The position numbers and the translations under genes are program-made. The notes below the pieces were generated by a model. The model saw nothing but the letters and a program-made list of their open reading frames with translations. It was not told where the DNA came from and ran no database searches. From Mobula birostris (lineage: Eukaryota), in contig NC_092386.1 of NCBI RefSeq assembly GCF_030028105.1, positions 49,964,347 through 50,028,346 on the forward strand: a stretch of 64,000 nt of DNA. The letters are read 5' to 3'. This document shows, one piece after another, positions 1 to 55,910 of this stretch (the first letter of the stretch is position 1; every line of letters starts with the position of its first letter).

Positions 1-275
1 AGGAGAACCTAGAACTGAGGATCACTGCCTTAACATTTATAATGTAGAGAGGAGGAAATTTCACTCCTCCCTGCCCCACAGAGTCTGGAATCTTTAGAAT
101 TCTCTTATTTAATGGTAGTCGACACAGAGACTGAATATTTTAAGTCAAAGGAAACAGATCCTTGATAAGAGTTGAAAGGTTACCATGAGCACAGCTGAGG
201 TTACAGTGAGAACAGCCATGATGTCATTAAGTGGCAGCAGAGGGCTGAAGAAGCAAACTGGCTAATTTCTGCATG
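1..275 (+). mobile_element. Highly decayed CR1 (HER1-type) LINE 3' end
   Basis: Degenerate match to the CR1 RT C-terminus and 3'UTR (cagccatgatgtcattaagtggcagcagagggctgaag), comparable to the intact tail at 20920-20990. Confidence 0.6.
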
Positions 276-1029: not shown

Positions 1030-1365
1030 AGTAGAAAACAAAACTGCAGATGCTAGAATCAGAAATAAATGCAGAAATGCTGGAAGAGTTCAGCTGGTTA
1101 GACAGCATCTGTGAAAAGTGAAACCAGTTAACATTTGAAGCCAAAGACCCTTCATCAAAACTAAGAGAGGAACACATTGTCAACAACCTGTCACATCAAT
1201 TCTGTTTTTCCTCCCTCTATTGCCTGACCTATTCACAATTTTGGGATATGCAGCACTTTGGATTTGTAAGTCTTTGGAGCTCTTTCTCAGTTCCAGTGAA
1301 CTGTTGTTGACCTGAGGTGTGAACACGGAGTTCTCTTTCCACAGATGACATTTGACTGGATAAAT
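1030..1365. mobile_element. Old PLE-derived unit, two 3' tails in inverted orientation
   Basis: 1030-1163 is a minus-strand PLE tail with a degenerate hammerhead (TTGATGAAGGGTCTTTGG). 1200-1365 holds plus-strand tail remnants. Confidence 0.55.
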
Positions 1366-3856: not shown

Positions 3857-4768
3857 CAGCCAAAGTTTCACAGAAATATTTAAAAGGTATAAAAAGACAA
3901 ACTGTCTTTAACTGAGACACAAGTTCTTCATTTAAATGAAATACAGAACTAATTAGAACACAACAAATGCTTCTACTATAAAACTGTGTTTTAGTTCCTA
4001 ATAATTATCAACAGAGGAATTCATACAAAGAATGCTGCCCTGCTCTTTTGATTGACTGTAACTCAGTGCAGACACCTAGTGCAGATAATGGACCACTTTC
4101 TTTGTCTTCCTGCATGAAGTAATATCAAAAATCATCGCTTTTTAATTCAGCATCGGTTGGCTCAAATGAATAACAGAACACAAGCATATACAACTGACTC
4201 TACTTAAAGGCAGTCACTCTAAGCACAGCATAGTGTTCTACGGTTACACAAGTGCACATGACTGACACTAGTAAGAAAATGTTGCATCTTCTGAATCCTC
4301 CAAATCTTTTCCCTGTAACATTCAAGATGATTTTCGATACCTTCAAATTCTTTATATTTCATAACTTCATGAAGTAGTGTAATTGTTTCATTTTCACTCC
4401 TGGCTGTTTCTCACATCTCCAAGACTGAACACTTGACACCTCAGTCAGCAAATCAGTTCTGAATTGTGTCACTGCTTATTTCTCACCAACTGTCAGTGAC
4501 AAAGATCACAGCTTTCTGAACACAGCCACAGGCAACTGACTTTATTTAAAAACTACTCTAAGCATGGTTTAGTGTCTAATAGCCATACAACTGCACAACT
4601 GACTCTTGTTAGAAACTGCTCAGCAACAGTCTCCTGCCCCAGTTAAGTGGTATAATGTCCCAAATAAACAAAGGAAACCCCAGCTATTCTCTCGGTTAGA
4701 TTTTGTTGCTTAAGAGTCGTCCCAAATAAACAGCTGTCTGAATGAACTGAATTAACCGGAAACCACAG
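3857..4768 (-). mobile_element. Internally deleted pogo/Tigger element, copy 1 (left TIR lost)
   Basis: Colinear with 16605-18333 and 24571-26731. Right TIR-like ATTAACCGGAAACCACAG. Acidic transposase C-terminus remnant on the minus strand. Confidence 0.75.
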
Positions 4769-4890
4769 TGCAGGAGTAATGTATCTGTTCTCTATTCGCT
4801 TTGTGTTCTGTGTTGTGCACTTCTTATGTTTATTATGGTAACTAGTCACAATAGTGGGGGGGGGGTGGTAAAAGCAAAGGGAATGATATT

Positions 4891-5203
4891 GTGGGCATGT
4901 GGCCAAGTGGTTAAAGCACTGGACTAGCAACCTGAAGGTCGTGAGTTCAAGCCCCAGCCGAGGCAACGTGTTGTGTCCTTGAGCAAGGCACTTAATCACA
5001 CAGTGCTCTGTGATGACACTGGTGCCAAGCTGTATGGGTCCTTCCCTTGGACAACATCTGTGTCGTGGAGAAGGAAGACTTGCAGCATGGGCAACTGCTG
5101 GTCTTCCATACAACCTTGCTCAGGCCTGCGCCCTGGAGAGTGAAGACTTTCCAGGCACAGATCCATGGTCTCACAAGACTAACAGATGCCTTTATTTATT
5201 ATT
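4891..5203 (+). mobile_element. tRNA-derived CORE-type SINE, copy 1
   Basis: A box TGGCCAAGTGG (4900-4910), B box GTTCAAGCC (4945-4953), CORE-like TGTGTCCTTGAGCAAGGCACTTAA and an AT-rich tail. Two further copies in the window. Confidence 0.85.
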
Positions 5204-5339: not shown

Positions 5340-8066
5340 GATGTTTCAGATGTGTTCGAGGCAGAGGAATGAAAGGTGGGGGAGTAGCATTGCTTGTTAG
5401 GGAAAATATTACCCCAGTGCTCAGGCAGGACAGATTAGAGGGCTTGTCTACTGAGTCCTTATGGGTGGAGCTGAGAAACAGGAAAGGTATGGCCACATTA
5501 GTGGGTTGTATTACAGACCACCCAATAGTCAACGAGAATTGGAAGAGCAAATCTGCAGAGAGATAGCAGGCAACTGCAGGGAACATAAAGTTGTGGTGGT
5601 AGGGGATTTTAATTTTCCATATATTGATTGGGACTCCCATACTGTTAGGGGTCTAGGTGGTTAAGAGTTTGTAAAATGTGTTCAGGAAAGTTTTCTAAAT
5701 CAATATATAGAGGGACCAACTAGAGGGGATGCAATATTGGATCTCCTGTTAGGAAACGAGTTAGGACAAGTGATGGAAGTCTGTGTAGGGGAGCACTTTG
5801 GTTCCAGTGATCATAACACCATTAGTTTCAACTTGATCATGGACAAGGATAGATCTGGTCCTAGGGCTGAGGTTCTTAACTGGAAGAAGGCCAAATTTGA
5901 AGAAATGAGAAAGGATCTAAACAGCGTGGATTAGGACAGGTTGTTCTCTGGCGAAGATGTGATTGGTAAGTGGGAAGCCTTCAAAGGAGAAATTTTGAGA
6001 GTGTGGAGTTTGTACGTTCCTGTCAGGATTAAAGGCAAAGTGAATAGGAATAAGGAACCTTGGTTCTCAAGGGATATTGCACCTCTGATAAAGAAGAGGG
6101 AGTTGTATGACGTGTATAGGAAACAGGGAGTAAATAAGGTGCTTGAGGAGTATAAGAAGTGCAAGAAAATACTTAAGAAAGAAATCAGGAGGGCTAAAAG
6201 AAGACATGAGGTTGCCTTGGCAGTCAAAGTGAAGGATAATCCAAAGAGCTTTTACAGGTATATTAAGAGCAAAAGGATTGTAAGGGATAAAATTGGTCCT
6301 CTTGAAGATCAGAGTGGTCGGCTATGTGCGGAACCAAAGGAAATGGGGGAGATCTTAAATAGGTTTTTTGCGTCTGTATTTACTAAGGAAACTGGCATGA
6401 AGTCTATGGAATTAAGGGAAACAAGTAGTGAGATCATGGAAACTGTACAGATTGAAAAGGAGGAGGTGCTTGCTGTCTTGAGGAAAATTAAATTGGATAA
6501 ATCCCCGGGACCTGACAAGGTGTTCCCTCGGACCTTGAAGGAGACTAGTGTTGAAATTGCAGGGGCCCTGGAAGAAATATTTAAAATGTCGCTGTCTACA
6601 GGTGAGGTGCCAGAGGATTGGAGAGTGGCTCATGTTGTTCCGTTGTTTGAAAAAGGATCGAAAAGTAATCCAGGAAATTACAGGCCGGTAAATTTAACGT
6701 CGGTAGTAGGTAAGTTATTGGAGGGAGTACTAAGAGACAGAATCTACAAGCATTTGGATAGACAGGGACTTATTAGGGAGAGTCAACATGGCTTTGTGCG
6801 TGGTAGGTCATGTTTGACCAATCTATTGGAGTTTTGCGAGGAGGTTACCAGGAAAGTGGATGAAGGGAAGGCAGTGAATATTGTCTACATGGACTTCAGT
6901 AAGGCCTTTGACAAGGTCCTGCATGGGAGGTTAGTTAGGAAAATTCAGTCGCTAGGTATACATGGAGAGGTGGTAAATTGGACTAGACATTGGCTCAATG
7001 GAAGAAGCCAAAGAGTGGTGGTAGAGAATTGCTTCTCCGAGTAGAGCCCTGTGACTAGTGGTGTGCCACAGGGATCAGTGCTGGGTCCATTGTTATTTAT
7101 CATCTATATCAATGATCTGGATGATAATATGGTAAATTGGATTCAGCAAATTTGCTGATGATACAAAGATTGGAGGTGTAATAGACAGTGAGGAAGGTTT
7201 TCACAGCCTGCAGAGGGACTTGGACCAGCTGGAAAAATGGGCTGAAAAATGGCAGATGGAGTTTAATACAGACAAGTGTGAGGTATTGCACGTTGGAAGG
7301 ACAAACCAATGTAGAACATACAGGGTTAATGGTAAGGCAATGAGGAGTGCAGTAGAACAGAGGGATTTGGGAATACAGATACAAAATTCCCTAAAAGTGG
7401 CATCAGAGGTAGATAGGGTAGTAAAGAGAGTTTTTGGTACATTGGCCTTTATTACTCAAAGTATTGAGTATAAGAGCTGGAATGTTATGATGAGGTTGTA
7501 TAAGGCATTGGTGAGGCCGAATCTGGAGTATTGTGTTCAGTTTTGGTCACCAAATTACAGGAAGGATATAAATAAGGTTGAAAGAGTGCAGAGAAGGTTT
7601 ATAAGGATGTTGCCGGGACTTGAGAAACTCAGTTACAGAGAAAGGTTGAATAGGTTAGGACTTTATTCCCTGGAGCGTAGAAGAATGAGGGGAGATTTGA
7701 TTGAGGTATATAAAATTATGATGGGTATAGATACAGTGAATGCAAGCAGGCTTTTTCCACTGAGGCAAGGGGAGAAAAAAACTAGAGGACATGGGTTAAG
7801 GGTGAGGGGGGAAAAGTTTAAAGGAAACATTAGGGGGGGCTTCTTCACACAGAGAGTGGTGGGAGTATGGAATGACCTGCCAGACGAAGTAGTAAATGCG
7901 GGTTCTTATTTAACATTTAAGAATAAATTGGACAGATACATGGATGGGAGGTGTATGGAGGGATATGGTCCGTGTGCAGGTCAGTGGGACTAGGCAGAAA
8001 ATGGTTCGGCACAGCCAAGAAGGGCCAAGAGGCCTGTTTCTGTGCTGTAGTTTTTCTATGGTTTCT
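5340..8066 (+). mobile_element. CR1 LINE, 5'-truncated; disrupted ORF2 (APE endonuclease plus RT)
   Basis: Motifs YYRPPN, VVGDFNFP, SDHN, KSPGPD, NYRPV, YMDFSKAFDKV, FADD. CR1 TTCTATGG tail. 6-bp TSD AACTCC at 5334-5339 and 8067-8072. Several stops and frameshifts. Confidence 0.95.
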
Positions 8067-8342: not shown

Positions 8343-8445
8343 GAGTCCTGATGAAGGGTGCCGACCCAAAACATCGACTGTTCACTCTTTTCCACAGATG
8401 CTGCCTGGCCTGCTGAGTTCATCCAGCATTTTGTGTGTTGCTTTA
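8343..8445 (+). mobile_element. Short PLE 3' unit (hammerhead plus tail)
   Basis: AGTC CTGATGA A GGGT GCCG ACCC AAAAC ATC GACT followed by the family tail cagatgctgcctggcctgctgagttcatccagcattttgtgtgttgc. Confidence 0.85.
8344..8379 (+). ncRNA. Minimal type-I hammerhead ribozyme motif (G12A and G16.2A; probably inactive)
   Basis: Intact CUGAUGA, helix II GGGU/ACCC, helix I AGUC/GACU. Both defects are CpG-to-CpA transitions. Confidence 0.7.
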
Positions 8446-10714
8446 ACCTCTGCACATAATGCTTTGCAACATCGGTGAATCTCAGGCAGGTAAAGTCTTT
8501 AGCACCTGGTATTACTAAACAGCCTCCCATCCAAGACTAACTAGACCTGAGACTACTTGGTTTCTGGGGTCAAGTAGAAAAGGCTTGCAGTATCTCAGCC
8601 ACACACCACTTTAGACATTCTTGCTCATGTCAAATGTCATCATCACAGAACTGCGGGAAAAAATATCAATAGGATTACCTTGTGATCAGACAGCAAAGGG
8701 CAATTCACCTTCGTAACGTTAGATTTTTAAAAATTCAATCACCACAGATCAACACACTCTCAAATAACAAAGTACGGAGTGTTCACAAATAAAACACAAA
8801 ATTTCTGGAGCCAAGTCTGAAAATAAAAGCTGAAACAGTTTGACCTTTTGGGAGTAAATAGCAAATAACTTTACTTTAAACCATTAACTATTCTATCTCT
8901 CACAGAGGTCAACTAAGTTTTCTTTCAGATTTTCGAATTGATTTTACTTATTTATTCCGCTTGTAATTTAAGTGTAAACAGGTTAAGACTTCCATTGAAT
9001 AAGCTCTTTTTTCAAGTTTTAAGCCTTCCATGAAAAATTGTCTTAATGTTTTTTGCCTGTGTGAGAAAAGAAAGTTTTAAAAATTATATACAGTATATAT
9101 AGCTGGGTAACCTGGTTTTCTTTAATAAATTGAGATAGGGTAAATGGATGCTAAACTCCTTTTTCCATGCAGCATACGTAAGCCAGCATTCGTATTGAAA
9201 TTGAAGCATCCAAAAATATTAACCATGTCCAGGCTTTCTCCAGCAGGTTAACCAGTGAGCAGCTTCTCTTTTCAAATTTACAGGCTTGATGTTTTTTCAC
9301 CCTAATTCAAGATCACACCGTGTTTTGATATTCAGGCAATGAACTTTGCTGTTTAAATGTAACAAAATATAATTTTTTTCTACATTAATCCCTAACCCAT
9401 GCAGATGTTTATTGCTGTTCCAAAATTGGATTGCATTTAAAGACAATGTTTAAAAATGATATGGCTTCAAAGTAATCTACCATCCATATGACTCTCTCAA
9501 TCCACCGTATGAATTTCATCCACAATTGCAACAACATGAACTAAACTATGCTCAAAAAGCAGAAATAGCAGGAAAACACAACAATGGTTAAATTATGGAC
9601 ACATGAAAACTGCGATAGTCCCAGAGTATAAAGTAAGGTCTCAAATCCAGAATACAGAAGGGAATAAAAATAGGACTGTCTGAACTATTCTTGAGACAAG
9701 GTAAAGCATAACTGTTAAAAAAAAGTCCAAAGCTCCCAACTGAAGTTTGGGCCTTCTGACAGTACTATGACAAGAATAGATGTGCAACTTAAGAACTGTA
9801 ATTGCATGCCTAATATGATGTCATTGAAGGATTGATGACTTGACTGATTTACAAAGCTCAATATTACTTCAAATAGCTTTGTCATTTAAATCAGGATTTG
9901 ACTGATATTCAATGGTTAGGCCCAAGCAACGATCAAATTCAACAGAGGTGATGCAGACAAACAAGGATAGCTATTGTGAATAGAGGAATTTAAAGATCTA
10001 CAAACCACAGAAGTGCTAATAACTTGCATGTGTGCAGCATCTTTTTATGACCTACTGTACATTTTGCCGTCAGTGATGAAGTGATGGTGCTCACCAATAT
10101 TCTTGAATAAAGCCACCCAGTAAAATGCTGGTCAAACAAAAAAATGAATGAGATCTGGGGCCTGGATTTCACCTTCCCTGAAAGGCTGGTAAATGACACT
10201 GAAAGGATCCTGGCATGGAGTGATGCTTTCATCAGGTCTGCAAAGCACTCATTCACACTACAGCATTCTCAAGCAAGATAGCATTTTCTAAAAACTTTTA
10301 ATACTTTAAACAATGCAAAAGATTGGAGCATGCATATACAGAAAACAAGGAAATCTACATACATAAAACAATTTAATTAGTAGCCAACACGTTTCCCAAA
10401 GGAGGTTATTACAACATATACACATGAAATTAGTTATTTTAGTGCCAGTTTCCCAGGTGGCAATTTTGATCCAGTATAGCTTATTAAAAACTCATTTAAT
10501 ATTAAAGTAACTAAGTTTATCTTTCAGCTCATTTTACAATGAGTGTTGGGCATAAATACCATTAAGTCACCAATTCATTTTACAGGCTAGAAAACTGCGA
10601 AAAAAAGGCACAAACTGGGGAGAAATAAGACCTGATTTACTTGATTTTCTGGTGCAATCAATTAGGGTGCTCTCCACTGTGCATCTATAGAAGTCTGTTA
10701 AAGTTTTTTTATGA

Positions 10715-14664: not shown

Positions 14665-14793
14665 AACTCAAATCTCTTACTAGCTCTTCTTTCAGTTAGT
14701 CCTGACAAAGGGTCTCGGCCCGAAACGTCGACTGTACCTCTTCCTAGAGATGCTGCCTGGCCTGCTGCGTTCACCAGCAACTTTTATGTGTGT
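14665..14793 (+). mobile_element. Short young PLE 3' unit
   Basis: Hammerhead motif followed by agatgctgcctggcctgctgcgttcaccagcaacttttatgtgtgt. Confidence 0.85.
14697..14734 (+). ncRNA. Minimal type-I hammerhead ribozyme motif, best-preserved copy (single core defect G8A)
   Basis: TAGTC-CTGACAA-A-GGGTCTCGGCCC-GAAAC-GTC^GACTG. Helix I UAGUC/GACUG, helix II GGGU/GCCC, palindromic ACGU helix III, GUC cleavage triplet at 14727-14729. Confidence 0.8.
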
Positions 14794-16604
14794 AGCATAC
14801 TAGATGAGGTGTTTTAAGCATCTTCACTCTGTCGGTATGCCAATATGTAGGAGTGATGTAATCTGAAGTTCAGGCATGTGAACACATCAAGAGGTTAGGC
14901 TTTTCAAAGCACAATAGTCCTTTTCAATGCCAGCAATACTCTCATCCGCTTCCCTACTCTCTCCCTACTCTTGCTACTGGGTTGCCGCTCCAGTCAACAC
15001 CAGTAACTCCCTGAAACCAACACAGTAAAGTACCTTCAGTGCTTAAGGGGAAGCAGGACAAATGCATATCCTACATGGAGCCAGGAGAAGAGGTCAGCAA
15101 TTGACTGGAAAATTCCACGAAGCGCGTGGGTAAGGGCTGAGAATGAAAAGCACAGAGAGGGGAAGAAATTGTTGAGATGTTGCTGGCAACAACGAAGACA
15201 AATGGTTAGCGCCATAGTGGAATAAAGGCTGGTGTTTGAAGTTAACTTAAATGGGTAGAAACTAACAGAGAAATATTAGGACCCGAACAAATGGTCCCTT
15301 CTCTTTTTAATTAACACATCATAAACATTCTCCCTCCCCAGGCTTCCTCCACACATGCCAAAAAAACAATGGCTTTAGTATCAAGGAATAATTCGGTAAG
15401 CAAACCATTTTGTAGAATGCTTTGGAGTGCCAAGTGAAACAGCAAAGTCTCAAGAACGAACAGCAACAAGGATACCCAGCCAGCTGCATCTCACAGATCA
15501 CTGCTTTCATTTTGTCAGTGGTTGCCATTTCAGTTTTGAAACTGTGGCTAAACTCTAAAAGATTTCTTTACTACGTTTCCTGAAGCTGTGCTCCTAACCT
15601 TACACACTTATGGCTTAATAAAACCTTCTATCTTTAATAAGTGAACAAAAAGAACGGTGTATTTTATGTTTTAGTGTATGATTGAATACTATCAGTAATC
15701 ACATGACATGCCCTCAGGCATTTTTCAAAACATATTCACCTCTGTGCTCAAAGGGGCATTTGTTGAATAATTTAGCTTATTTACTTTTTAGCAGATTTAC
15801 CTTCAAATTCAAATATCCACTGATTTATTTCCACTCCATCACTTTGGTGGAAAAACCAAATCTGGCGAAGTGGTGTTCTGAAAGGATTATTTGTTCCCAG
15901 TACAATACCACCTCTAAAGCTGGAGAAAGTATAGAAATTATTACATACAGGAATAAGAAATTAGATTCTTCTTTAAATTCAGATATTACAGAATTTAACT
16001 GTCCAAACAGAACTAAATATTCAGCCTCATTGTTGGTTTAAAAGTAATCTTAGACCATATCTCCCACAAAACTAACAGACCACAGTCATATTGCTCAAGG
16101 CAATCTCTACATGCATAAATTACCAAGCATCGAAATCTAATCCCAAAAGAAAAAACAGGTTAGATTTTGGCAATGTCAGGAGAAGCAGTGGAGTTATTCA
16201 AAAAAAATACAGGACTGGAATATAAGTCTTAGGACACAATAACATTGCAAATTTAGCTGGTAACTTTAATTTTTCTCATGAAGGAAGATTTGAAAAGCAG
16301 TGACTTCTCTGATAGATTCAGCTAAATAACAATGTCATCATTTCAAAATAATACAAAGAAATCATTGAACATTTTCCAGGGTAAATACATCACGTATTTC
16401 TGGTTATTATATATCTAGGCATCAGAAATGTGAAGTAAAAATTTCAAATCCTATGCTTATCTATAAGAATAATTCCATTAAAACATATTTAGATAATTTT
16501 CATAAACTCAATTTAACAACAGTTTAATGCAAGTTACTTCAAATTTACAGTTAAGTTCAGGATATCAAATGCCATTAGGCCTATGATACAGTTAGATTTT
16601 AATA

Positions 16605-18333
16605 CAGTGGATTCTGGTTAGTTGGGGCATATTGGGATCAGTACGTTTGGCCCAATTAAGCAGCTGCCCCCATTAGCCAAAATTTCATGGAATTAGTTAA
16701 ATGGTATATTTAAAAAAGACAAACTACCATTTGACTGAGTAACAATTGATTTAAATGAAATAGAAAACAAATTAGAATACTACCAAATCCTCTACAGTAC
16801 TATAAAACTGCATACGAGTTCCTAATAGTTATTGGAGGAATTAATCTGTATTCTTATGATTAAACAAAATTAGCACAAGCACTTAGGGCAGATCATAAAC
16901 ACAAGAAATTCTGCCCATGCTGGAAATTAAAAGCAACACACACAAAATGCTGGAGAAATTGGTCTGACAGCATCAATGGAAACGAATAAACAGTCAACGA
17001 TTTGGGCCGCGACCCTTGTTCAGGACTGGAAAGGAAGGAGGAAGACCATAGAATAAAAAGCTGGGCGGAGGGGAAGGAGGATAGTTAGAAGGTGAAAGGT
17101 GAAGCTTGATGGTGGGGAAAGGTAAAGGACTGGCAAGGAAAGAATCTGATGGGACAGGAGAGCGGAGCACGGAATAAAGGGAAGAAGGAGAGGCACCAGG
17201 GGAGGTCATCAGTGGGTGAGAAGAGGTAAGAGGCCAGAGTGGGGAATAGAAGAGGAGGGAAGGGGAAACAAAACCTTTTTTTTTTTTACCTGAAAGAGAA
17301 AACAATGTTCATGCATCAGGTTGGAGGCTACCCAGATAGAATATGAGGTATTGCTCCTTCACCCTGGGAGTGGCCTCATCATGGCAGAAGAGGCGGCCAT
17401 GGACCAACATGTCAGAACGAGAATAGAAATTCAAATATTTGACCACTAGGAAATTTTGCTTTTGGATGATGAAGTGGAAGCACTAAACAAAACTGCCCCC
17501 CAATTTACATCGGGTCTCACCAACGTAGAGGAGGCTGCATCAGGAGGACCAAATACAATAGCTGACCTCAACAAATTAGCAGATGAAGTGTAGCCTCACC
17601 CGGAAGGGTTGTTTGGTGCCCTGAATGGAGGTGAGGGAAGGAGTGGGCAGGTGTAGCACTTCAGTTGCTTGCAGAGTTAAGTGCTGGGAGGAAGATTAGC
17701 AGGGAAGCATGAATGGACAAGGGAATCATGGAGGGAGTGATCCCTGCTTACTCTGAATGGAGGTGAAGGTGGTGGTGAATGGGCAGATGTAGCCCTTTGG
17801 CTGCTTGCAGGCATAAGAGGTGGGATTGCTCCGTGATTCCCTTGTCCATTCATTTTGTGTGTTACCTTGTGTAGATAATGGACTGGCTTCATACAATACT
17901 TTTGACAACTGCACCCTCTAAACTTTCATTTTCATAGTAACATTCGAGATGATTGTAGCTACTGTCAAATTCTTCATAATTCCTAACTTGGAGAGAAATG
18001 ATTTCATTTTCATTCCCGGCTGTTCCTGGCTTCTCCAAGCCTGAATTCTTGAACCCGCAGTGAGTAAAACAGTTCCAAATTGCCTTTCCTGCTTATTTCT
18101 TGCCAACTATCAGTGGCAAAAACCACTGCTTTTGGACAAAACCACATGCAACTGACAAGCTGATTGCTCTAAGCATAGTGTCGTGTCCAACAGCCATGCA
18201 AGTGCACTCAACTGACGCTAGCTGAAACTGTTCGGTCAGTCTCTTGCCCCACTTATGCAGCACAAAGGAATCCCAGCTATTTTACAAACAGCTGCCCTGA
18301 TTAACTAGTGGCCCAATTAACCGGAATCCAATG
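16605..18333 (-). mobile_element. Internally deleted pogo/Tigger element, copy 2, with nested PLE
   Basis: TA|CAGTGGATTCTGGTTAGTTGGG ... CCCAATTAACCGGAATCCAATG|TA; TIRs and TA target duplication present. Confidence 0.85.
16897..17863 (-). mobile_element. Penelope-like element 3' part (GIY-YIG region plus tail) with short 5' inversion
   Basis: Minus-strand homology to 54800-55518; hammerhead remnant 16991-17028; inverted segment ~17820-17853; degenerate 16-bp TSD at 16881-16896 and 17864-17879. Confidence 0.85.
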
Positions 18334-18529: not shown

Positions 18530-20992
18530 TCAACATGCAGGTAGACTGGAGGAATCCGGTTGGTACTGGACCCCAAGAAATGGAGTTTGTGGAGTCCCTC
18601 CGAGATGGATTCTTAGAACAGCTTGTACTGGAGCCTACCAGAGAGAACGCAATTCTAGATTTAGTGTGGTGCAATGAACCGGATTTGATCAGGGACCTCG
18701 AGGTAAAGGAGCCATTAGGAGGTAGTGACCATAATATGATACGTTTTAATCTACAATTTGAGAGGGAGAAGGGAAACTTGGAAGTGTCAGTATTATAGTT
18801 AAACAAAGGGAACTATGGTGCTATGAGGGAGGAGCTGGCCAAAGTTCAATGGAACAATACCCTAGCAGGGATGACAGTGGAACAGCAATGGCAAGTGTTT
18901 CTGGGAATAATGTGGAAGGTGCAGGATCAGTTCGTTCCAAAGAGGAAGAAAGATCCGAAGGGGAGTAAGGGGAGGCCGTAGCTGACAAGGGAAGTAATGG
19001 ACTGTATAAAAATAAAAGAGAAGTATAACATAGCAAAGACGAGTGGGAAGCCGGAGGATTGGGAAACTTTTAAAGAGCAACAGAAGGTAACTAAAAAGGC
19101 AATACGTGGAGAAAAAATGAGGTACGAAGGTAAACTAGCCAAGAATATAAAGGGGGATAGTAAAAGCTTCTTTAGGTATGTGAAAAGGAAAAAATAGTTA
19201 AGACCAAAACTGGGCCCTTGAAGACAGAAATGGGTGAATTTATTATGGGGAACCAAGGAAATGGCAGATAAGTTGAACAGGTACTTTGGATCTGTCTTCA
19301 CTAGGGAAGACACAAACAATCTCCCAGATATAATAGTGGCCAAAGGACCTAGGGTAACGGATGAACTGAAGGAAATTTATATTAGGCAGAAAATGGTGTT
19401 GGATAGACTGTTGGGTCTGAAGGCTGTTAAGTCCCCGGGACCTGATGGTCTGCATCCCAGGGTACTTAAGGAGATGGCTTTAGAAATCGTGGACGCATTG
19501 GTAATCATTTTCCAATGTTCTATAGATTCAGGATCAGCTCCTGTGGATTGGAGGGTGGCTAATGTTGTCCCTCTCTTCAAGAAGGGAGGAAGAGAGAAAA
19601 CAGGGAATTATAGACCGGTTAGCCTGACATCGGTGGTGGGAAAGATGCTGGAGTCAATTATAAAAGATGAAATTACGACACATCTGGATAGCAGTAACAG
19701 GATCAGTCCGAGTCAGCATGAATTTACGAAGAGGAAATCGTGCTTGACTAATCTTCTGGAATTTTTTTTGAGGATGTAACTATGAAAATGGACAAGAGAG
19801 AGCCACTGGATGTAGTGTACCTGGACTTTCAGAAAGCCTTTGATAAAGTCCCACATAGGAGATTAGTGGGAAAAGTTAAGGCACATGGTATTAGGGGCAG
19901 AGTATTGACATGGATTGAAAATTGGCTGGCTGACGGAAGACAAAGAGTAGCGATTAATGGGTCCCTTTCGGAATGGCAGGTGGTGACCAGTGGGGTACCG
20001 CAGGGTTCAGTGCTGGGACCGCAGCTGTTTACAATATATATTAATGATTTAGATGAGGGAATTAAAAGTAACATTAGCAAATTTGCCAATGATACAAAGC
20101 TGGGTGGCAGTGTGAAATGTGAGGAGGATGTTATGAGAATGCAGGGTGACTTGGACATGGTGGGTGAGTGGGCAGATGCAGTTTAATGTGAATAAATATG
20201 AGGTTATCCACTTTGGTGGTAAGAACAGGAAGGCAGATTATTATCTAAATGGAGTTAAGTTAGGAAAAGGGGAAGTACAATGAGATCTAGGTGTTGTTGT
20301 ACATCAGTCACTGAAAGCAAGCATGCAAGTACAGCGGGCAGTGAAGAAGGCTAATGGCATGCTGGCCTTCATAACAAGGGGATTTGAGTATAAGAGCAAA
20401 GAGGTCCCTCTGCAGCTGTACAGGGCCCTGGTGAGACCACACCTGGAGTATTATGTGCAGTTTTAGTCTCCAAATTTGAGGAAGGATATTCTTGCCATTG
20501 AGGGAGTGCAGCATAGATTCACAAGGTTAATTCCCGGGATGGCGGGACTGTCATATGTTGAAAGATTGGAGCGACTGGGCTTGTACACTCTGGAATTTAG
20601 AAAGCTGAGAGGGGATCTTATTGAAACATATAAGATTATTAAGGGATTGGACATGCTGGAGGCAGGAAGCATGTTCCCGCTGATGGGCGAGTCCAGAACC
20701 AGAGGCCACAGTTTAAGAATAAGGGGTAGGCTATTTAGAACGGAGTTGAGGAAAAACTTTTTCACCCAGAGAGGGGTGGATGTATGGAATGCTCTGCCCC
20801 AGAAGGCAGTGGAGGCCAAGTCTCTGGATGCTTTCAAGAAAGAGATGGATAGAGCTCTTAAAGATAGCGGAATCAAAGGTTATGGGGATAAGGCAGGAAC
20901 TGGGTACTGATAGTGGATGATCAGCCATGATCACAGTGAATGGTGCTGGCTCCAAGGGCCGAATGGCCCACTCCTGCACCTATAGTCTATTA
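18530..20992 (+). mobile_element. CR1 LINE (second subfamily, HER1-type tail), 5'-truncated, disrupted ORF2
   Basis: Motifs [59 protein letters not shown]; 3'UTR gatcagccatgatcacagtgaatggtgctggctccaagggccgaatggccc. Confidence 0.95.
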
Positions 20993-21849: not shown

Positions 21850-21962
21850 CGTCACAAGAAACTGCAGATGCTGTAGACCAGAACAAAAAATCCAGAGGAA
21901 CTGAAGGTCAGGCAGCATCCATGGAGGCATTGTCATTTCAGGTCCAGATCCTGCAGAATCAC
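21850..21962 (-). mobile_element. Short decayed PLE tail
   Basis: cacaagaaactgcagatgctg...aggtcaggcagcatccatggagg. Confidence 0.65.
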
Positions 21963-24820: not shown

Positions 24821-26169
24821 TATAGGGTATCCAGGGAAGGGTAGAACCTCTGATGAAGGAGCTTGTCAAGTCCATTTTGGGGCAGGTCACTCACCTTTGA
24901 TTCCCAGCAGATACTCAGCCTTCACCTGTGGCTCCAAGCAACTGTTTGCATGTGACAGTGGTCTAAACCAGGTGAAGAAGGGTCTCATACCCCAGGGAAA
25001 TAGTGACATGAGCAACATACATAAAATGCTGGGGAACTCAGCAGGCCAGGCAGCATCTATGGAAAAAACTATAGCCAATGTTTCGGTCCAAAACTCTTCA
25101 GCAGGACTGGAGAAAAAAAGCAGCTGAGGAGTAGATTTTAAAGGTAGGGGAGGGGAGAGAGAAACACTAGCTGATGGTAAAAACTGGAGGGGGAGGGATG
25201 AAGTAAGGAGCTGGAAGGTTGATTGGTGAAAGAGACAGAAGGCCATGGAAGAAAGAAAAAGGGGAAGGTGCACCAGAGGGAGGTGATGTATTGGCAAGGA
25301 TATAAGGCAAGAGAGGGAAAAGGAATAGGAAATTGGGAATAGGAAATTTGGAAATGGAGAAAGGGGAGGGGGTATTACTGGAAGTTTGAGAAATCTATGT
25401 TCATGCCATCAGGTTGGAGACTACCCAAACGAAATTCAAGGTGTTGTTCCTCTAACCTAAGTGTGCCCTCCTTCTCGATTTCCCATCCCCCTTTCCCTCT
25501 CTCACCTCATCTCCTTGCCTGCCCATTGCCTCCTTCTGGTGCTCCTTCCTTTTTCTTTCTCCCATGGCCTTCTGTCTTCTGCTATTAGATTCCCCCTTCT
25601 CCAGCCATCTCTTTTCACCAATCAACTTCCCAGCTCTTTACTTCATCCATTCCCCTCATCACCTGGTGGTTCTCTCTCCTCTCCCCCACCTTTTAAATCT
25701 ACTCCTCAGCTATTTTTCTCTAGTCCTGCCAAAGGGTTTCGGCCCAAAACGTCAATTGTACTTTTTTTCCCCATAGATGCTGCCTGGCCTGCTGAGTTCC
25801 TCCAGCATTTTGTGTGTGTTGCTCAGATTTCCAGCATCTGCAGATCTTCTCGTTTGTGAAACAGGGACATGCCTGTCCAAACATATGAAGTCAGCTCTGA
25901 TGGACTGGGTAGATGAAATCAACAGTAAGATCTAACCACCAAGGTAGTGGTTCTCCCAACACTTTATGGAAAGCAAAGGGCACAAGCAAGCACATAATCA
26001 GTCACGGTTATCAACTGCAATTAAGGAAGACCCCAGTTTGTGACAGCTACTTATGCCACTGGACCCAGACTTCAGAGGTCAAGAGAGTGGAACTGTCCCA
26101 GTGCAATGGCTTTTCCACTTTAAAAACTCTCCCACACAGGTTTCACTGTCATTGTTCGATACAATGGAC
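24821..26169 (+). mobile_element. Unclassified non-coding insertion, possibly RTE 5'UTR-derived, split by a PLE
   Basis: Absent from Tigger copy 1 at the equivalent site. ~190 bp plus ~310 bp flank the PLE. Family assignment is tentative. Confidence 0.45.
25011..25857. mobile_element. Penelope-like element: two 3' arms in inverted orientation
   Basis: 25011-~25465 minus and ~25466-25857 plus. Each arm has a hammerhead remnant (25072-25109, 25721-25758). 12/14 TSD GAAATAGTGACATG / GAAACAGGGACATG. Confidence 0.9.
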
Positions 26170-26859: not shown

Positions 26860-26981
26860 AGCACAAGAGATACTGCAGATGTTGAAAATCCAGAGTAACA
26901 CACACAAAATGCTGGAGGTCAGGCAGCATCTATGCAGAGGAAAAAAAAGAGTCAGCATTTCAGGCTGAGACCTTTCATCAG
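26860..26981 (-). mobile_element. Short PLE tail with hammerhead core, truncated by a HERO insertion
   Basis: Minus strand reads CTGATGA-A-AGGTCTCAGCCT-GAAATGCT-GACTC, then the family tail. Confidence 0.8.
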
Positions 26982-27345
26982 TACGCAGGACTGGTCAGCA
27001 ACTGTCAGCAGGCTGGATGGAGAGTGAGGTGTCTCCCAGTGGAGGTTGGTTGTAGGGGATTCGTAGCCCATTCTTTAGTTAGAGCCTTCAGCATTTTGGG
27101 CATCGAGGGAGAGAGGAAGAGGAGAGCCATCCGCAGTACCACCGATGCGGCAGAGAGGGCCTTGAGATGGCTGTGGCTCAAAAGAGGGGAGCCATGGAGT
27201 CATAAGTAGCTAGCCATCCAGACACAAGCTGGGGTCTGATCAGCCCCAGCTGGGTCACCTGGAGGAGGTTGTATGGTGTTGAAAGACCCGAAACATCCGA
27301 TGATTCCAGGAACATCACTGAAGATGTGTCCAGAAGCATCAATAG
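26980..27345 (+). mobile_element. HERO-type (restriction-like endonuclease) non-LTR retroposon, 3' fragment
   Basis: Open frame 26982-27209 YAGLVSNCQQAGWRVRCLPVEVGCRGF...AAERALRWLWLKRGEPW fits the RLE C-terminus of HERO elements, followed by a 3'UTR (ctggggtctgatcagcc...gaaagacccgaaaca...catcactgaagatgtgtcc). Confidence 0.75.
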
Positions 27346-29948: not shown

Positions 29949-31047
29949 AACACAAAAGATTCTGAAGATGCTGGGAATCTAGAGCAACGCACACAAAATG
30001 CTGGAGAGACTCAGGTCAGGCAGCATCTATACAGAGTTGTCATTTCAGGCCGAGACCCTTGAATAGGATTGGAAAGAAAGGAAGGAAGCCAGGATGTGAG
30101 GGGAGGGGAAGGAGTACAACCCGACAAGTGATTGGTGAAACCAGTTGAAGGGGAAGGTCATTGGGTGGGGGAGAACAGAAGAAATGAGAAGCTGGCAGGT
30201 GATAGGAGAAAGGGGTAAAGGTCCAAAGGAGGAAGAAATTGATAGGACACAAGAGTGGACCAAAGGAGAAATGGAGGGAAGAGGTTATAATCAAGTGAGA
30301 AGTGGAAAAAAAAGAGCCAGAATGGGGAATGGTAAAGTGAGAAGGGGGAATGGGGAGGAAATTATCGTAAGTTCAAGAAATTGATGTCCGTGCCACCCAG
30401 ATGGAATATGAGTTGTTGCTCCTCCAACTTGAGAGTGGCCTCATTGTAGCTACACAGGAGGCCATGGACTGCCATGTTGAAATGAGAATGGGGAGTGAAG
30501 TTAAAATAGATGACCCTGCCTGTTGCGGATAGAGCAAAGGTGTTCGACAAAGTGGTCTCCCCAGTCTACGTCGAGTCTCACCGACGTAGAGGAGGCTGCA
30601 CTGCGAGCACTGATTACAGCAGGTGACCCTGCCAGGTGAAGTGTTGCCTCGCCTAGTAGGACTGTTTGGGACCTTGAACAATGGTGAGGAGGTGAATGGA
30701 CAGATGTAGCACTGTGTGCTGCTTACAGGGAGTGGGGTGGAAGGTGGGGGAGGTAAAGATGTGTTCATTGGTAGGATGTTTAGTGCTGGATACAGGGCCT
30801 TGTGTACTTACTGCTGCAATAACCAGGATAGAGTTCCTCTCATCTTTACCAGCACCATTCCAGCGAGGGAGATCTTCTTGTCCTTTCCTACCACCACATC
30901 CACTATTATCAATGGAATCCTACCACTAACCACGTCTTTACCTCCCTCCCCCCTCCACTTTCCACAGGGATCACTCTCTCCATGACTCCCTTGTTCATTC
31001 ATCCCTCCCCACTGATCTCTCTCCTGGCACTCAACTCCTATCCTCAA
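29949..31047 (-). mobile_element. Penelope-like element with 5' inversion (GIY-YIG region)
   Basis: Minus-strand peptide VTCCNQCSQCSLLYVGETRRRLG (GIY-YIG). Tail at the left. Plus-oriented segment ~30810-31047. Confidence 0.9.
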
Positions 31048-32479: not shown

Positions 32480-33785
32480 GTGCCTTCCCAAATGCAAATG
32501 CAACTGGCTGGAGTGTTCACTGAGATCTTTAACCTCTCACTTTGGAAGTGCGAGGTACACACCTGCTTCATACAGGGTTCAATTATACCGGTGCCTCAGA
32601 AGAACGTGGTATCGTGGCTCAGTGACTATCATCCGGTACCACGTACATCCACTGTGATGAAGTGTTTGAGAGGTGGTGATGAAACCCATCAACTCCTGCC
32701 TCAGAAGTGACTTGGATCTGCTCCAATTTGCCTACTAGCACAACAAGACCACAGAAGATGCCATCTCATTGGCTCTTCAACTCAACCCTGGAACATCTGG
32801 GCAAGCAAAGATGCATACTTCATGATGTTCTTTATCACCTCGGCATTCAATACTATCACCCTCTCAAAGCTAATCAACAAGCTTCAAGACCTTAGCCTCA
32901 ATATCTCCTTGTGCAATTGGCTCTTGAATTTTCTCATTTGCACACACCCGTCAGTTGGAATTGGCAACAGCATTTCCTCCACAATATCCATCAGCACAGG
33001 TGCACCACAAGGCTGTGAGCTTAGCTCCCTGCTCTATTTGCTTTACAATTAGAGCATAGCACAGCTCCAATGCCATACTCAAGTTTACTGATGACATCAC
33101 TGTTGTTTATTATTTTATATTATAGGCATCCGTTAGTCTCATGAGGCCATGGATTTGCGACTTGGAAGGTTTCTAGGTCGCAGGCCTGGGCAAGGTTGTA
33201 TGAAAGACCAGCAGTTGCCCATGCGGCAAGTCTCCCCCCCTCCATGCCACTGATGTTGTCCAAGGGAAGGGCATTAGGACCCATACAGCTTGGCACCGGT
33301 GTCGTCGCAGAGCAATGTGTGGTAAAGTGCCTTGCTCAAGGACACACATGCTGCCTCAGCCAAGGCTCGAACTAGCGACCTTTGAATCACTAGGCGAACG
33401 CCTTAACCACTTGGCCACGCGCCAACACTATCACTGTTGTAGGCAGAGTCAAAGGTGATGACCATATAGGAAGGAGGCTGAGAACCTGGCTGAGTGGTAC
33501 CACACTAACAACATCTTATTCAATGTCAGCAAAACCAAGGAGTTGACTAGTGACTTCAAGAAGATGAAACCAGAGGTCCCTGAAAAAGTTCACAGAAGAT
33601 AAGAGGTGGAGAGGGTCAGCAACTTTAAATGCAAACACTAATGCCCTTGAATGGTCAATTCTATTTTAAAATAGTGGATTCGGCCCAGTCCATCACTTGT
33701 AAAGCCCTCCCCACCACTGAGCACGTCCACACGGAGCACTGTCACAGGAAAGCAGTATCTGTCATCAGGGACCCCCAACACCTGC
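32480..33785 (+). mobile_element. Rex1/Babar-type LINE RT fragment interrupted by a SINE
   Basis: Peptides IIPVPQK...DYHPVPRTSTVMKC, SAFNTI...[20 protein letters not shown]. Confidence 0.85.
33107..33429 (-). mobile_element. tRNA-derived CORE-type SINE, copy 2
   Basis: A box TGGCCAAGTGG and B box GTTCGAGCC on the minus strand. Perfect 11-bp TSD ATCACTGTTGT at 33096-33106 and 33430-33440. Confidence 0.9.
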
Positions 33786-39596: not shown

Positions 39597-39876
39597 TGGC
39601 CAAGTGGTTAAGGCATTGGACTAGCGATCTGAAGGTCGTGAGTTCGAGCCCCAGCCGAGGCAGCATGTTGTTCACTTGAGCAAGGCACTTAACCACACAG
39701 TGTTCTGCGATGACACTGGTGCCAAGCTCCTTCGCTTGGACAACATCAGTGTCGTGGAGAGGGCAACTGCCGGTCTTCCATACAACCTTGCCCAGGCCTG
39801 CGCCCTGGAGAGTGAAGACATTCCAGGCACAGATCCATGGTCTCGCAAGACTAACGGATGCCTTAATTATTATTAT
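39597..39876 (+). mobile_element. tRNA-derived CORE-type SINE, copy 3
   Basis: TGGCCAAGTGG, GTTCGAGCC, same body and tail as 4891-5203. Confidence 0.9.
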
Positions 39877-44859: not shown

Positions 44860-45020
44860 CGAACACAAGAGGTTCTGCAGATGCTTGAAATCCTGAGATA
44901 AACATACTGTACACAAATATGTGAGGAACTCGGCAGGGCAGGCAGCATCCATGGAGGGGAACAAGCAGTTGATGTTTCTGACCAAGACCCTTCATTAGAG
45001 CTAGAAAGGAAGGTGGAAGA
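44860..45020 (-). mobile_element. Short PLE tail with degenerate hammerhead (44966-45003)
   Basis: Minus strand TAGCT-CTAATGA-AGGGTCTTGGTCA-GAAAC-ATC-AACTG plus tail. Confidence 0.8.
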
Positions 45021-50829: not shown

Positions 50830-53070
50830 AGTGCTACATACTGCACTCATGAGCAAAGACTAGCTTAAGAAACTCATGATAAAATGAATGATGAACAAAA
50901 GATGTGGTGGAGGGCTGAGAGATTGGTGGATGTTTGGGGAGGTGGGCAAAATGGCAATTTGGGATTTCGCACAAGGAATAAATCTGGACAGGTGGGAGCA
51001 GCTGCTATAGGGGAAGCTCTGTTTAGCTGGTGATCAAAAATGCAGTTAGATTTAGCGAGTTCTGGAAAGTGACAATATAAGAAACAGTAGTAAAAGTTGG
51101 GATATTCCCAATTTTGCAAGAGTGGACTGGAAACAGCTACTTTAAGGTAAATCATCAATCAGAATAACTAGACATTCAAGGGACTCTGAGCAAACATGTT
51201 CCAATGAGAAAAACAGTTGGGACTGTCAAACCTAGATAATAAAGTGCACAAAGAATAAAATAAGGGGGAATAAGGGGGTGGGGGTGAAGGAAGCTTACAA
51301 GAATCACGGTCTAGAGCTTGCTGTAAGCACAAGAGTGAAATTAGAAGGAAAATTAGGAAATACCAGCTGTTAAAATAAAAAAAAATCAGAAGGTGTTTTA
51401 CATGTGGAAAAAGATCAAAAGAACTATGAAGAGTAGGCTTTACTACAGATTAGGCAGCTAACCGAAATGTGTGGAGGTCAAGTCATACACAAGGTTCGTA
51501 ATTAATACTTTGCAGCTATCTTCACAAAACAAGGAAAGACAGCAGTGCTCTCAATGTGGTCTACATGGTTTTACCAAAGCTTTTGAAATTAGTATACATC
51601 AAGTAGGCAAAAATGTAAAGAATCCATATCGGATAGGTGGTAGGAAGTAAAGGGTTTTGGTTCAAGGATGCTTTTGTGACTGAAAGACATCAGTATGGTT
51701 CTACAAGGGGCAAGAATCTCATGTTCCCAATATTTACTACTTTTTTTTGAATTTGCAGATTTGATGTTCATCCATCTTTGTTGTGTACAGTTTGCCGCTG
51801 ATTCTACTGTGTTTCTTTCTATTCCCTCTGAATGCCTGCAAGGAAAATGAATCTTGTAGTATATGGTGACGTAAATGTACTTTCAGAGTAAATTTACTTT
51901 GAACTTTGAAACATACATGAGGCATGGTAAAGAAGTTTGCAGACATTTCAAAAATTGACAATTTGATTGAGGGGATGGAGAGCCACTTTAGATGCAAGAT
52001 GAGAGTCAGATCAGACCAGACACACAGAAGAAACAAATGTAATTTAACCTTCTTCCCTCCACCATTCTCATTTGCCCACCTCATTTCTTTTATTTCATGC
52101 TCCCCTCAGATTCCATCATCTATATCCCTTTGTTTCTTCCACCCTTCAAATCCCAGCACCTTTCAGACCAGATGAAGGGCTTTGACATGATGCATCAACT
52201 GTCCAATTACCTCCATGGATGCTACCTGACCTGCTGAGTTCCTCTAGCAACTTTTTTTTTGCTACAGATTACAGTATCTGCAGTTTCGTGTCCCCATTAG
52301 TCCAAAGATGTGTTTAAGTATTTCTTTCCGGAAAGGAATACACAGAAGGGTTGTGTGCTATGGAAGAATGATGCTTGGATTGAATGTTCATGTTCCTACA
52401 CAGGCTGCAAGATAGATGGCTAAGACAATCACAATGGCATTCAAGATGATTTCCTTTCTCAGCTAAGGCCTAGAATCTAGCAGAGCAGGGAGGTTATGCT
52501 GGGCCTTTCTACAAATGCTAGTTTGACCACAGCTTGAATCCTGTTTAGAGTTTCCATCACACTATAGAAAAGATGCAATTGCACTGGAGAAGCAGCACAG
52601 AAGCTTTACAAGAATGTTGCCGGGGTTGCAAAACAATTGCAAAAAAAACCTCAGCCTCTCCTTCCTTCTGTCAAAGCTCCAAACAAATTTGAAGGACTTA
52701 ATTAAGGGGCTCAAAATTATGGAGGCAAGATAAAATGTACAGGAAAAATCTCTGAGCCTTAGTAGAGGTTTCATTTTTAACTTTTAAGACGGAGTATGGA
52801 ATTAATGTAACTGGCAGAAGATCAGCTCAATGAAGGAAATAATTTTCACCCAGAAGTTGAAAGACATTTGCTCATTAGCCGAGATGGATGATTAATGTAG
52901 AACAGCCTTACACTTATACACTTACATTGTATCTGGATATGTACTTTAAGAGCCATGATATACAGTTCATTAGGCCTAGTTGTGGAAAATTAAGCTGAAT
53001 AGCTCCTTATAATTGGCATGGGGATTGTGGGCTGAATGGCTTTAAGTTGTAAATTCTGTACGATTCCATG
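50830..53070 (+). mobile_element. Very old CR1 remnant with nested Rex 3'UTR and PLE tail
   Basis: Scattered CR1 ORF2 motifs (gtggtctacatggttttaccaaagctttt; aagtttgcagac; ttttcacccagaag). Confidence 0.55.
52050..52290 (+). mobile_element. PLE tail with degenerate hammerhead (52164-52201)
   Basis: CAGAC-CAGATGA-AGGGCTTTGACAT... followed by gatgctacctgacctgctgagttcctctagca. Confidence 0.7.
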
Positions 53071-54094: not shown

Positions 54095-55518
54095 TTGGAA
54101 AACTTGGCAGAACTAGTCCTCACTCTCAACAATTTCTCCTTCTGCTCCTCTCACTTTCTCCAAACTCAAGGGATAGCCACTGGCACCCACATGGACCACA
54201 GCTGTGCCTGCCTTTTCACCGGCTACAAAGAACAATTCATGTTCCAAGCCTTCCCTGGAAATGCTCACCAAACCTTCCTCTGCTACATTGACTACAGCAT
54301 TGATGCTGAGCTTGTCAATTTCATTAACTTTGTTTAAACTTCCACCCTGCCCTTAAATTCACTCAAATCATTTCTGATGCCTCCCTCCCCTTTCTTGATC
54401 TCTGTCTCTATCTCTGGAGACAAGATGTCAACTGACATCTCTTATAAACCTACTGATTCCCACTGTTATCTTGACTGTATCTCTTCCCACCCTGTCCCGT
54501 GTAAGAATGCTATCCCCTTTTCTCAGTTCCTTCATTTCCGCTGCATTTGCTCCCAGGATGTGGCTTTGCTTTCTAGGACATCAGAGATGATCTCCTTCCT
54601 CAAAGAACAGTGTTTCCCTTCCTCTACCATTGATACTGCCTTCTCCTGCATCTCTTCAATTTCCAGAACATCTATGCTCACCTCATCAGGGATAGAATTC
54701 CTCTTGTCCTTACCTACCACCCCACGAGCTTATGCATCTAACATATCATTCCCCGCAACTTTCACCATCTCCAAAGGGATCCTACCACTAAACACATCCT
54801 TAGCTCTCCCACCCCCCACTTTCCACAGGGATTGCTCCCTCCGTGATTCCCTTGTCCATTCATCCCTCCCCACTAATCACTCTCCTCATACTTATCCCTG
54901 CAAATGACCCAAGTGCTACACCTGCCCATTCACCTCCATTCAGGGCCCCAACAGTCCTTCCAGGGAAGGCAACACTTCACCTGTGAATCTGCTGGGATCA
55001 GCTATTGTGTCCGGTGCTCCTGATGGGGCCTCCTCCACAGTGGTGAGACCAGTCGTAAATTGGGTGGTTGGGGGGGGGGGGCTTCTTTGTGCACCTCTGC
55101 AGAACTTCCTGGTGGCCAGACATTATAATAATGATTCCTGTCCCGTTCTGTGACGTCGGTCCATAGCCACCTCTTGTGCCATGATCAGGCCACCCTCAGG
55201 GTGGAGCACCAACACCTTACATTCAGACTGGGTAGCCTCCATCCTGATGCATGAATATTAATTTCTCCTGCCCTTTCTCTTATGATCCACTCTGCTCTCC
55301 TATCAGATTCCTCCCCCTCTAGCTCTTTGCCTTTCCTACCCACCTGGCTTCACCTATCACCCTGCTAACCTCCTTTCCCTCCCCACACCCGATCCGGTGT
55401 CTTCCTCCTTCCTTTCCAGCCCTGAAGGAGGATCTTGACCCAAAACATTGACTGTTTATTCATTTCCACAGATGCAACCTGGCCTGCTGAGTTCCTCCAG
55501 TATTTGTGTGTGTTGCTT
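54095..55518 (+). mobile_element. Penelope-like element: RT C-terminus, thumb, GIY-YIG endonuclease, 3' tail with hammerhead remnant
   Basis: LTLNNFSF..QTQGIATGTHM...CACLF, CYID, YKPTDSHCYLDCISSHP, YCVRCS*WGLLHSGET. Hammerhead remnant 55417-55454. Confidence 0.9.
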
Positions 55519-55719
55519 TTTACTATCTTAGCTCATAACTAAAATTAAGGTCTGTGCAATGTTTAATTCTTCAAAAAAAAGCAAGATTAATCCATCAGTC
55601 TAATTCAGATGAAGTTTTGAAATGTTTTATCACTACATCCTTTGGTGCAGTAATCCTTGGTGTCCTTTCCCTTATTTAAAAAATGCAGTAATCGTGCAAC
55701 TTCCAAATACGCAGCAAAT

Positions 55720-55910
55720 TACTGCAGATAGTAGAAACCTGATATAATAACAAAGTTTTGAAAATAGACAGTATTCATGTGGAACCGTGGAAGAGAAAAC
55801 CAGTTAATATTTCAGGCAAATGATTATTCAGAAGTGTTAACTCTGCTCTTCTTTCTCTCCCCAAAGTCGCTGCCTAACCTGCAGAGTAATTCCAGTATTT
55901 TCTGTATCTC
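55720..55910. mobile_element. Old compact inverted PLE-tail unit
   Basis: Minus tail (actgcagatagtagaaacctg) facing a plus tail (gctgcctaacctgcagagtaattccagtattttctg). Confidence 0.45.

Follow-up and report, generated by a model that had tools for sequence, protein, structure and literature searches.

A minimal type-I hammerhead motif in a Penelope-like retrotransposon of Mobula birostris and genomic junctions that may record its cleavage

The stretch of Mobula birostris DNA analysed here (64,000 nt; the window) contains, at 14697, a sequence with the layout of a minimal type-I hammerhead ribozyme, one of eleven such motifs that an initial annotation had placed in a Penelope-like repeat said to encode a self-cleaving RNA. 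The locus raises the question of what such a motif does in the life of the element that carries it: whether the RNA cuts itself in the animal, and what the genome retains of the event. The motif is of a known kind and, like the window copies, which are relics, ordinary in itself; what this analysis adds is the evidence from junctions between copies.

Hammerhead relics in the window

A pattern check of the window found all eleven motifs, of 33-39 nt, at the positions and on the strands annotated. A profile built from them recovers 11/11 and two more degenerate matches, at 21884-21955(-) and 55829-55907(+), and 100 shuffles gave 0 matches to the motif, which, with the empty reversed-pattern controls described below, excludes chance. 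The features are collected in Table 1; throughout, C3 is numbered 0 (window 14702 for the 14697 copy), which puts the predicted cut just before +28. As had been proposed, no copy in the window is fully intact: 0/11 pass a hammerhead descriptor consisting of the core, a helix I with 4 bp or more and a helix II with 3 bp or more. The 14697 copy is a single step from a complete core, its sole core change being G8>A within a CpG, and it has the G10.1-C11.1 pair. An Rfam scan gave no hammerhead family at E<=10, which lends no support in either direction.

The suggestion that helix II varies while keeping its pairing holds in part, with pairing present in 7/11 copies (in one weakly, with three G-U pairs) and broken in the copies at 25072, 44966, 52164 and 55417. 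Because the four pairs are retained in seven copies and broken in four, the window shows decay of helix II, not compensation. Window-level covariation of helix II was rejected on these grounds; the genuine covariation comes from relatives of the element. The eleven copies fall into several subfamilies with different flanks. The consensus offered for them needs amendment in young copies, where N7 is C, not U (62/67 sampled motifs), and helix I begins UAGUC. The repeat is dominant in the sense of being the most frequent by copy number, but LINE-type reverse transcriptase fragments span more bases.

Table 1. Positions of the hammerhead motif and of Penelope-like copies in the window.
Feature	Position	Strand	Remark
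Minimal type-I hammerhead motif, G8>A	14697..14734	+	core change at G8 alone
14697 copy, helix I	14697-14701 paired with 14730-14734	+	
14697 copy, core	14702-14708	+	
14697 copy, extra A	14709	+	
14697 copy, helix II	14710-14721	+	
14697 copy, GAAA	14722-14725	+	
14697 copy, C3	14702	+	
14697 copy, predicted cut	between 14729 and 14730	+	
5'-truncated young Penelope-like end, 129 bp	14668..14796	+	96.9% to L010 (a young copy elsewhere), 91.5% to L061
Longest Penelope-like remnant of the window	54107..55523	+	70.7% to L061 unit over 1231 columns
Endonuclease-containing older remnant	16897..17747	-	decayed hammerhead 16991-17028
Older copies, head-to-head pair	25011..25853		decayed hammerheads 25072-25109(-), 25721-25758(+)
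Short copy, homology starting at 5' edge of helix I	8344..8446	+	G12>A
Decayed hammerhead and tail	1072..1163	-	profile match
Short copy	26870..26984	-	core boxes retained; U16.1 and helix I gone
Older remnant, fragmented	29959..31031	-	decayed hammerhead 30035-30071
Decayed hammerhead and tail	44865..45003	-	
Decayed hammerhead and tail	52164..52291	+	

The young fragment around the 14697 copy begins some 34 nt ahead of C3, includes the hammerhead and has the shorter 3' end, reaching about +94. The longest remnant holds the end of the reverse transcriptase, the linker, the endonuclease, the 3' repeat and a decayed hammerhead (55417-55454). All of the window copies are mutated insertions and likely dead.

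Other mobile sequences share the window. Two LINE copies (5659-8063 and 40222-42597) are 94% identical across 2.4 kb and have older relatives at 19380-20975 and 46350-47795, all of which we take to be CR1-like. A repeat of about 300 bp occurs three times (4884-5203, 33119-33433 and 39597-39874); its head matches tRNA weakly, at a sub-threshold 23 bits, and it is probably a tRNA-derived SINE. A Tc1/Sleeping Beauty-type transposase remnant lies at 36002-36659(-) (HTH_SB, E 4.7e-18). A Pfam scan for host genes took in 150 of the 210 open frames that lie outside the large LINE blocks and have 62 codons or more; it returned only LINE and Tc1-type domains, and such a scan would miss short exons.

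The carrier element, its hammerhead and its copies

An ORF in the longest remnant (54338-54907) was used as the query for a genome search and led to long open frames across the genome. The Penelope-like nature of the carrier was borne out by a reverse transcriptase, a CX4CxxC linker, a GIY-YIG endonuclease and the motif in both terminal repeats. Locus L061 has a repeat-ORF-repeat layout in which the two motifs, at 7629-7656 and 3906-3933, are spaced by 3723 nt. Its frame is open for 1005 codons and breaks in a run of C ahead of the linker, the ATG of the element ORF lies 166 nt after C3, and some 690 nt of upstream repeat make the locus longer than unit length. In L063 the DKG motif, reverse transcriptase, CX4CxxC linker and GIY-YIG domain all stand in one frame; the Pfam matches (RVT_1, E 1.3e-5; GIY-YIG, E 6.9e-4) are both below curated cut-offs, with the motifs visible in the sequence, and the protein has 421 homologues at E<=1e-30.

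A CX2-5CxxC linker before the endonuclease marks the Neptune/Nematis type among endonuclease-bearing (EN+) Penelope-like elements (Craig et al. 2021, PMC8557442), and by this criterion the linker assigns our carrier to that type. Like the elements described there, it has a reverse transcriptase with a C-terminal GIY-YIG domain, partial tandems, inverted 5'-truncated copies and a one-sided tail of 30-40 nt. The best named homologue, from a bamboo shark, is 71% identical, and those of marine invertebrates are near 50%; the shark match fits, without proving, the earlier suggestion of an elasmobranch family. In the N-terminal half of the ORF a block of about 80 codons, rich in proline and serine, is duplicated (L061:6440-6860(-)). 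An inverted arm lies directly upstream of 56/215 motifs, inverted head-to-head pairs usually combine one long and one short 3' end, and many simple stubs have target-site duplications of 8-16 nt, called by script at 22/60 loci (L141-L200), some of them doubtful.

At the level of the family the proposed interpretation is supported: the consensus has the complete core with the extra A, and its helix III is the palindrome ACGU, as had been described. A sense-strand minimal hammerhead was also found in 22/80 distant relatives (metagenome loci, 27-62% identical in the best segment), and in none of these 80 when they were reversed or in any of 10 shuffles. The descriptor made no demand on helix III, which was palindromic in 22/22 relatives when read by eye, and the extra base sits at offset 1 in 21/22; it is A in 67/67 sampled copies. 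We aligned 18 motifs, four from the M. birostris genome and, from the 22 relatives, 14 picked because their helix III has no loop. In this alignment 92.4% of cells are paired (23-36% in slid controls), 59 cells are changed on both sides against 17.6 when shuffled, the palindrome 15.2-16.2 is paired in 18/18 and G10.1-C11.1 is present in 17/18. The covariation is partly circular, since helices I and II of the relatives were selected for pairing. Two of the metagenome contigs, L213 (3577 nt) and L273 (6150 nt), carry an identical hammerhead at both ends and represent tandem or circular Penelope-like elements assembled at unit length.

These features identify the motif as the minimal hammerhead of Cervera and de la Pena (2014, PMC4209133), so that the novelty implied by the initial annotation was too high. 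The correspondence takes in type I, the missing loop III, the palindromic 15.2-16.2, the extra base between 9 and 10.1, a helix I of 4-5 bp, presence in both repeats and mostly dispersed single copies; helix II differs, with 4 bp here and 7-8 in schistosomes. That paper reports such motifs in the Xena, Poseidon and Neptune elements of fish, with copies running to thousands in a fish or amphibian genome (about 4,000 in coelacanth and 9,000 in Xenopus), and names no cartilaginous fish in the sections covered. Our case departs further from it in some 38,000 exact cores in two pattern classes alone, and in a dominant young subfamily with G10.1-U11.1.

Pattern searches of the genome yielded these cores. 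In the 4.01-Gb assembly, the exact 28-nt core occurs 10,937 times with a helix II ending in GCCC (two positions free) and 27,342 times with one ending in GCCT, while reversed-pattern controls for both gave 0 genome-wide. With a relaxed core the matches rise to 176,108, while the corresponding control has 23,857, and a 33-nt tail word occurs 55,330 times. Of the very large reservoir that had been foreseen, tens of thousands of core-intact copies exist, some of which might lie inside introns or UTRs. We sampled 99 copies, selected by their tails, from the first 5.5 Mb of one contig (C1), of which 67 span the whole motif without gaps. The core is kept in 56 of these 67 and the core with all helices in 38, of which only six have G10.1-C11.1; in the sample of 67 the pair 10.1-11.1 is G-U in 52 and G-C in 13. 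The commonest young subfamily (for example L061:7624-7661(-)) has a fixed C-to-T change at 11.1 that loses G10.1-C11.1, and a weaker ribozyme may have suited amplification. Base changes in the 67 copies cluster at CpG sites, equally within and outside the core, as neutral decay would give.

Folding calculations suggest why most of these copies might do little. By nearest-neighbour energies the monomer traps the core, and the active dimer (-11.5 or -16.7 kcal/mol, compared with -22 or -26 for a pair of monomers) is predicted to be disfavoured by about 9-11 kcal/mol, in a model that leaves out tertiary contacts. These values agree with the low or protein-dependent activity described for Penelope hammerheads in vitro (PMC4209133, PMC11167929); cleavage as a dimer is attributed to Luense, Weinberg and Breaker in a review (PMC6765202). 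Single-strand folding gave z-scores of -0.03 to -2.3 and no structural support. Most core-intact copies stand singly, and the lone copies are predicted to misfold; as a single schistosome minimal hammerhead did not cleave in vitro either (PMC4209133), the reservoir is probably mostly inert. Head-to-head pairs carry two motifs on opposite strands, so that a host transcript would have only one of them in sense, and this one would probably sit in a long hairpin.

Ends of copies and joins at the predicted cut bond

The 3' ends of 97 measurable copies fall into two groups, 45 at 80-105 and 51 at 120-145 with one between, which define two sites near +95 and +131, all ahead of the ATG at +166. At the other end, 22/99 copies begin within -8..0 (20 of them at -5..-2), where the upstream rate predicts 1.6. 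At the cut bond, by contrast, copies do not begin: 0/99 have a 5' end at +26..+29 and one at +30, where about one is expected, and two lie at +34. Were cut RNA the template, copies would start at +28; none do, which points to uncut RNA as the usual template.

The pile-up is also seen genome-wide. Patterns extended stepwise upstream gave nested counts of 27,342, 24,515 (derived), 22,593, 20,722 (derived), 20,130 and 17,881, a loss per added base of 3.6% in the first step, 7.8% at -4, 8.3% at -5, 2.9% at -6 and 2.3% at -7..-11. Among 60 inspected loci that break at -4 or -5, just five were flagged or read as point-mutated long copies of the same subfamily; other subfamilies may account for a few. 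Several insertions among the rest that are bounded by target-site duplications (L146, L150, L153 and L162) reach A-4 and continue in untemplated bases, from which we infer a physical RNA end at A-4. The initiator consensus is YYANWYY, and the word around A-4 fits it. The Penelope element of D. virilis has a TATA-less internal promoter (PMC2377424). A copied cap as the source of a G before A-4 is unsupported: among 100 matches listed the first base is G in 28, A in 25 and C in 47, and the untemplated bases at duplication-bounded junctions are mixed. For this reason a transcription start at A-4 remains something that we infer.

The same pile-up might instead come from the reverse transcriptase stalling at the folded ribozyme, or from a splice acceptor ahead of helix I. 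Long copies, like the window at 14676-14695, do carry a branch-point-like word, a pyrimidine run and a CAG (ending at -7 in the long copies) just before helix I, the intron of the D. virilis Penelope ends at helix I (PMC4209133), and letters shared with the target can move apparent ends upstream. Yet 0/99 copies start at -6 and the truncated copies are preceded by no common first exon; spliced templates were rejected as an explanation on this count. The four duplication-bounded insertions behave as at the physical end of a template. We regard a stall or an acceptor as unlikely, while giving it real weight.

Nor does the pile-up follow from the model put forward in PMC4209133, in which both hammerheads cut, ligation turns the unit-length RNA into a circle, and reverse transcription rolling around it yields long and partial-tandem copies with a restored hammerhead. 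Religation would leave the bond free of 5' ends, as observed, and L061 with its upstream repeat exceeds unit length; however, read-through of tandem source copies gives L061 equally well, and circles, having no 5' end, cannot yield the pile-up at -5..-2. The model accounts at most for the long class, and we consider it quite improbable.

The scissile bond does appear within copies that are joined directly to one another. We defined a join as the hammerhead end of one unit followed within 16 bases by the start of a new one; the search gave 105 matches, of which 100 were tallied by hand. Among these 100, 30 end exactly at +28, and 20 of the 30 are blunt to A-4 with no shared letters, each being a tandem copy of the predicted 32-nt 5' product; four of the 30 share two letters with the upstream flank. 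The others end at +27 (10), +29 (4), +30 (1), +24..26 (4), +31 (11), +32 (2), +33..35 (28, several of these rows from one same locus) or beyond (3), and seven are ambiguous. Most of the precise cut-bond joins belong to the G10.1-U11.1 subfamily. As a control, the stretch +43..+70 gave 184 matches, 100 of them listed; when about 30 rows that were point mutants or joins in 8 nt of homology are dropped, the matches listed represent about 44 loci over about 25 positions, with at most five per position. On the same contigs (C1-C12) the cut bond has 17 loci. Against a background of seven loci per position, as in the clusters at +31 and +35, away from the predicted cut, the peak has a P of about 0.001, not 1e-11. 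Direct joins are rare, with 105 matches beside some 38,000 exact cores.

Some joins take other forms. A second group restarts at A-8 instead of A-4 (for example G000:C4:52144336-52144366), and seven have the form GT-G-A, one base before the cut and with an extra G; a second start site and a copied cap are possible sources. At L070:8973-9237 four same-strand hammerhead units spaced by 67 nt lie beside an inverted copy, a miniature retrozyme-like array that grew in part at the DNA level, given a CpG change common to three of its units. Further small hammerhead arrays occur among the matches to the joins and to the control stretch.

Occasional cleavage followed by a jump of the reverse transcriptase is the simplest reading of the cut-bond joins, and the main rival to it is nuclease preference. 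The motif would then be a hammerhead by descent that no longer cuts and is kept as promoter, 5' UTR or protein-binding sequence, with the +28 joins produced by a nuclease such as RNase H or by the GTCGAC palindrome centred on the bond. The most prolific subfamily has lost G10.1-C11.1, the active dimer is predicted to be disfavoured, the cut bond has no 5' ends (0/99), joins have side peaks at +31 and +35, and hammerhead mutants of an anole element had no effect on insertion in vitro (PMC11167929), all of which speak for such a sequence. It does not explain why the sharpest peak of joins stands on the scissile bond, with 30 rows against four and one at the next positions among the matches listed, or why the core boxes, the extra A and the palindrome are all retained in the young subfamilies and in 22 relatives. 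We rate a sequence that no longer cuts as rather improbable.

The small arrays, and a 2026 preprint that derives animal retrozymes from Penelope repeats (Li, Clavereau and Pollet, bioRxiv 10.64898/2026.07.22.740005), could suggest that the short copies form a non-autonomous retrozyme family of their own, moved as ribozyme-cut circles. The stubs, however, match the end of the long element, have the same two 3' ends and neither start nor stop at the cut bond, and tandem joins (105 + 184 matches, against 55,330 tails) are not the main form. This possibility is largely refuted and we hold it to be very improbable. Our elements resemble the animal non-LTR retrozymes of the preprint, which it reports in one chondrichthyan, in having type-I hammerheads from Penelope repeats; they differ in that tandem units are rare by-products here and the bulk are dispersed element ends.

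A proposed RNA life cycle and its meaning

Taken together, these observations lead us to propose that an endonuclease-bearing Penelope-like retrotransposon carries the motif, a minimal type-I hammerhead, in its terminal repeat (pseudo-LTR), and that the RNA of the element likely has A-4, where the 4-bp helix I begins, as its 5' end. Reverse transcription likely begins inside this RNA at two sites, by analogy with the anole element in vitro. On RNA from the start site the enzyme would run off the 5' end and produce the stubs of 90-135 nt, while on read-through RNA it would copy through an uncut 3' hammerhead and produce the long copies. A lone hammerhead is predicted to be inactive; cleavage would require a dimer formed through ACGU, and would probably proceed at a low rate and with the help of protein. 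An occasional jump of the reverse transcriptase from the 5' end of the RNA to the 3' end of a released 32-nt product would give the cut-bond joins. The DNA junctions thus suggest that templates are mostly uncut, that transcription probably proceeds from helix I and that cleavage in the animal is likely to be occasional. We assign the identification of the motif and this scheme of start, template and cleavage, taken jointly, a probability of about 0.7.

The closest described counterpart is the anole Poseidon element PAc (Frangieh et al. 2024, PMC11167929), in which two internal start sites of reverse transcription define a tail of 30-40 nt. The two-site tail, a hammerhead near the start of the ORF and uncut RNA as the main template are common to both. 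The ORF of PAc, however, begins within the hammerhead, whereas here the ATG lies well downstream and both 3' ends precede it, and the Zn-finger-like motif of our linker points to Neptune/Nematis, not to Poseidon. According to the same source the RNA-seq reads of PAc neither start nor end at the cut site, while here joins in DNA fall on it. Neither Penelope hammerheads of elasmobranchs, nor copies that begin at helix I, nor copies joined at the cut bond came up in the literature that we covered, which lay mostly outside subscription journals.

More tentatively, and at somewhat less than even odds, the junctions can be read as a DNA record of the life of the RNA, with a start at helix I, a ribozyme that acts as a self-decapping switch by removing a 32-nt leader, and jumps of the reverse transcriptase onto that leader. 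If this is true, the joins would be a genome-level sign of cleavage in vivo by a minimal Penelope hammerhead, even with G10.1-U11.1, and would show a route by which tandem retrozyme-like arrays arise. The tens of thousands of young copies amount to a natural experiment on why Penelope elements keep their hammerheads; these copies indicate uncut RNA as the usual template, point to one base as the 5' end of the RNA, and predict a 32-nt product.
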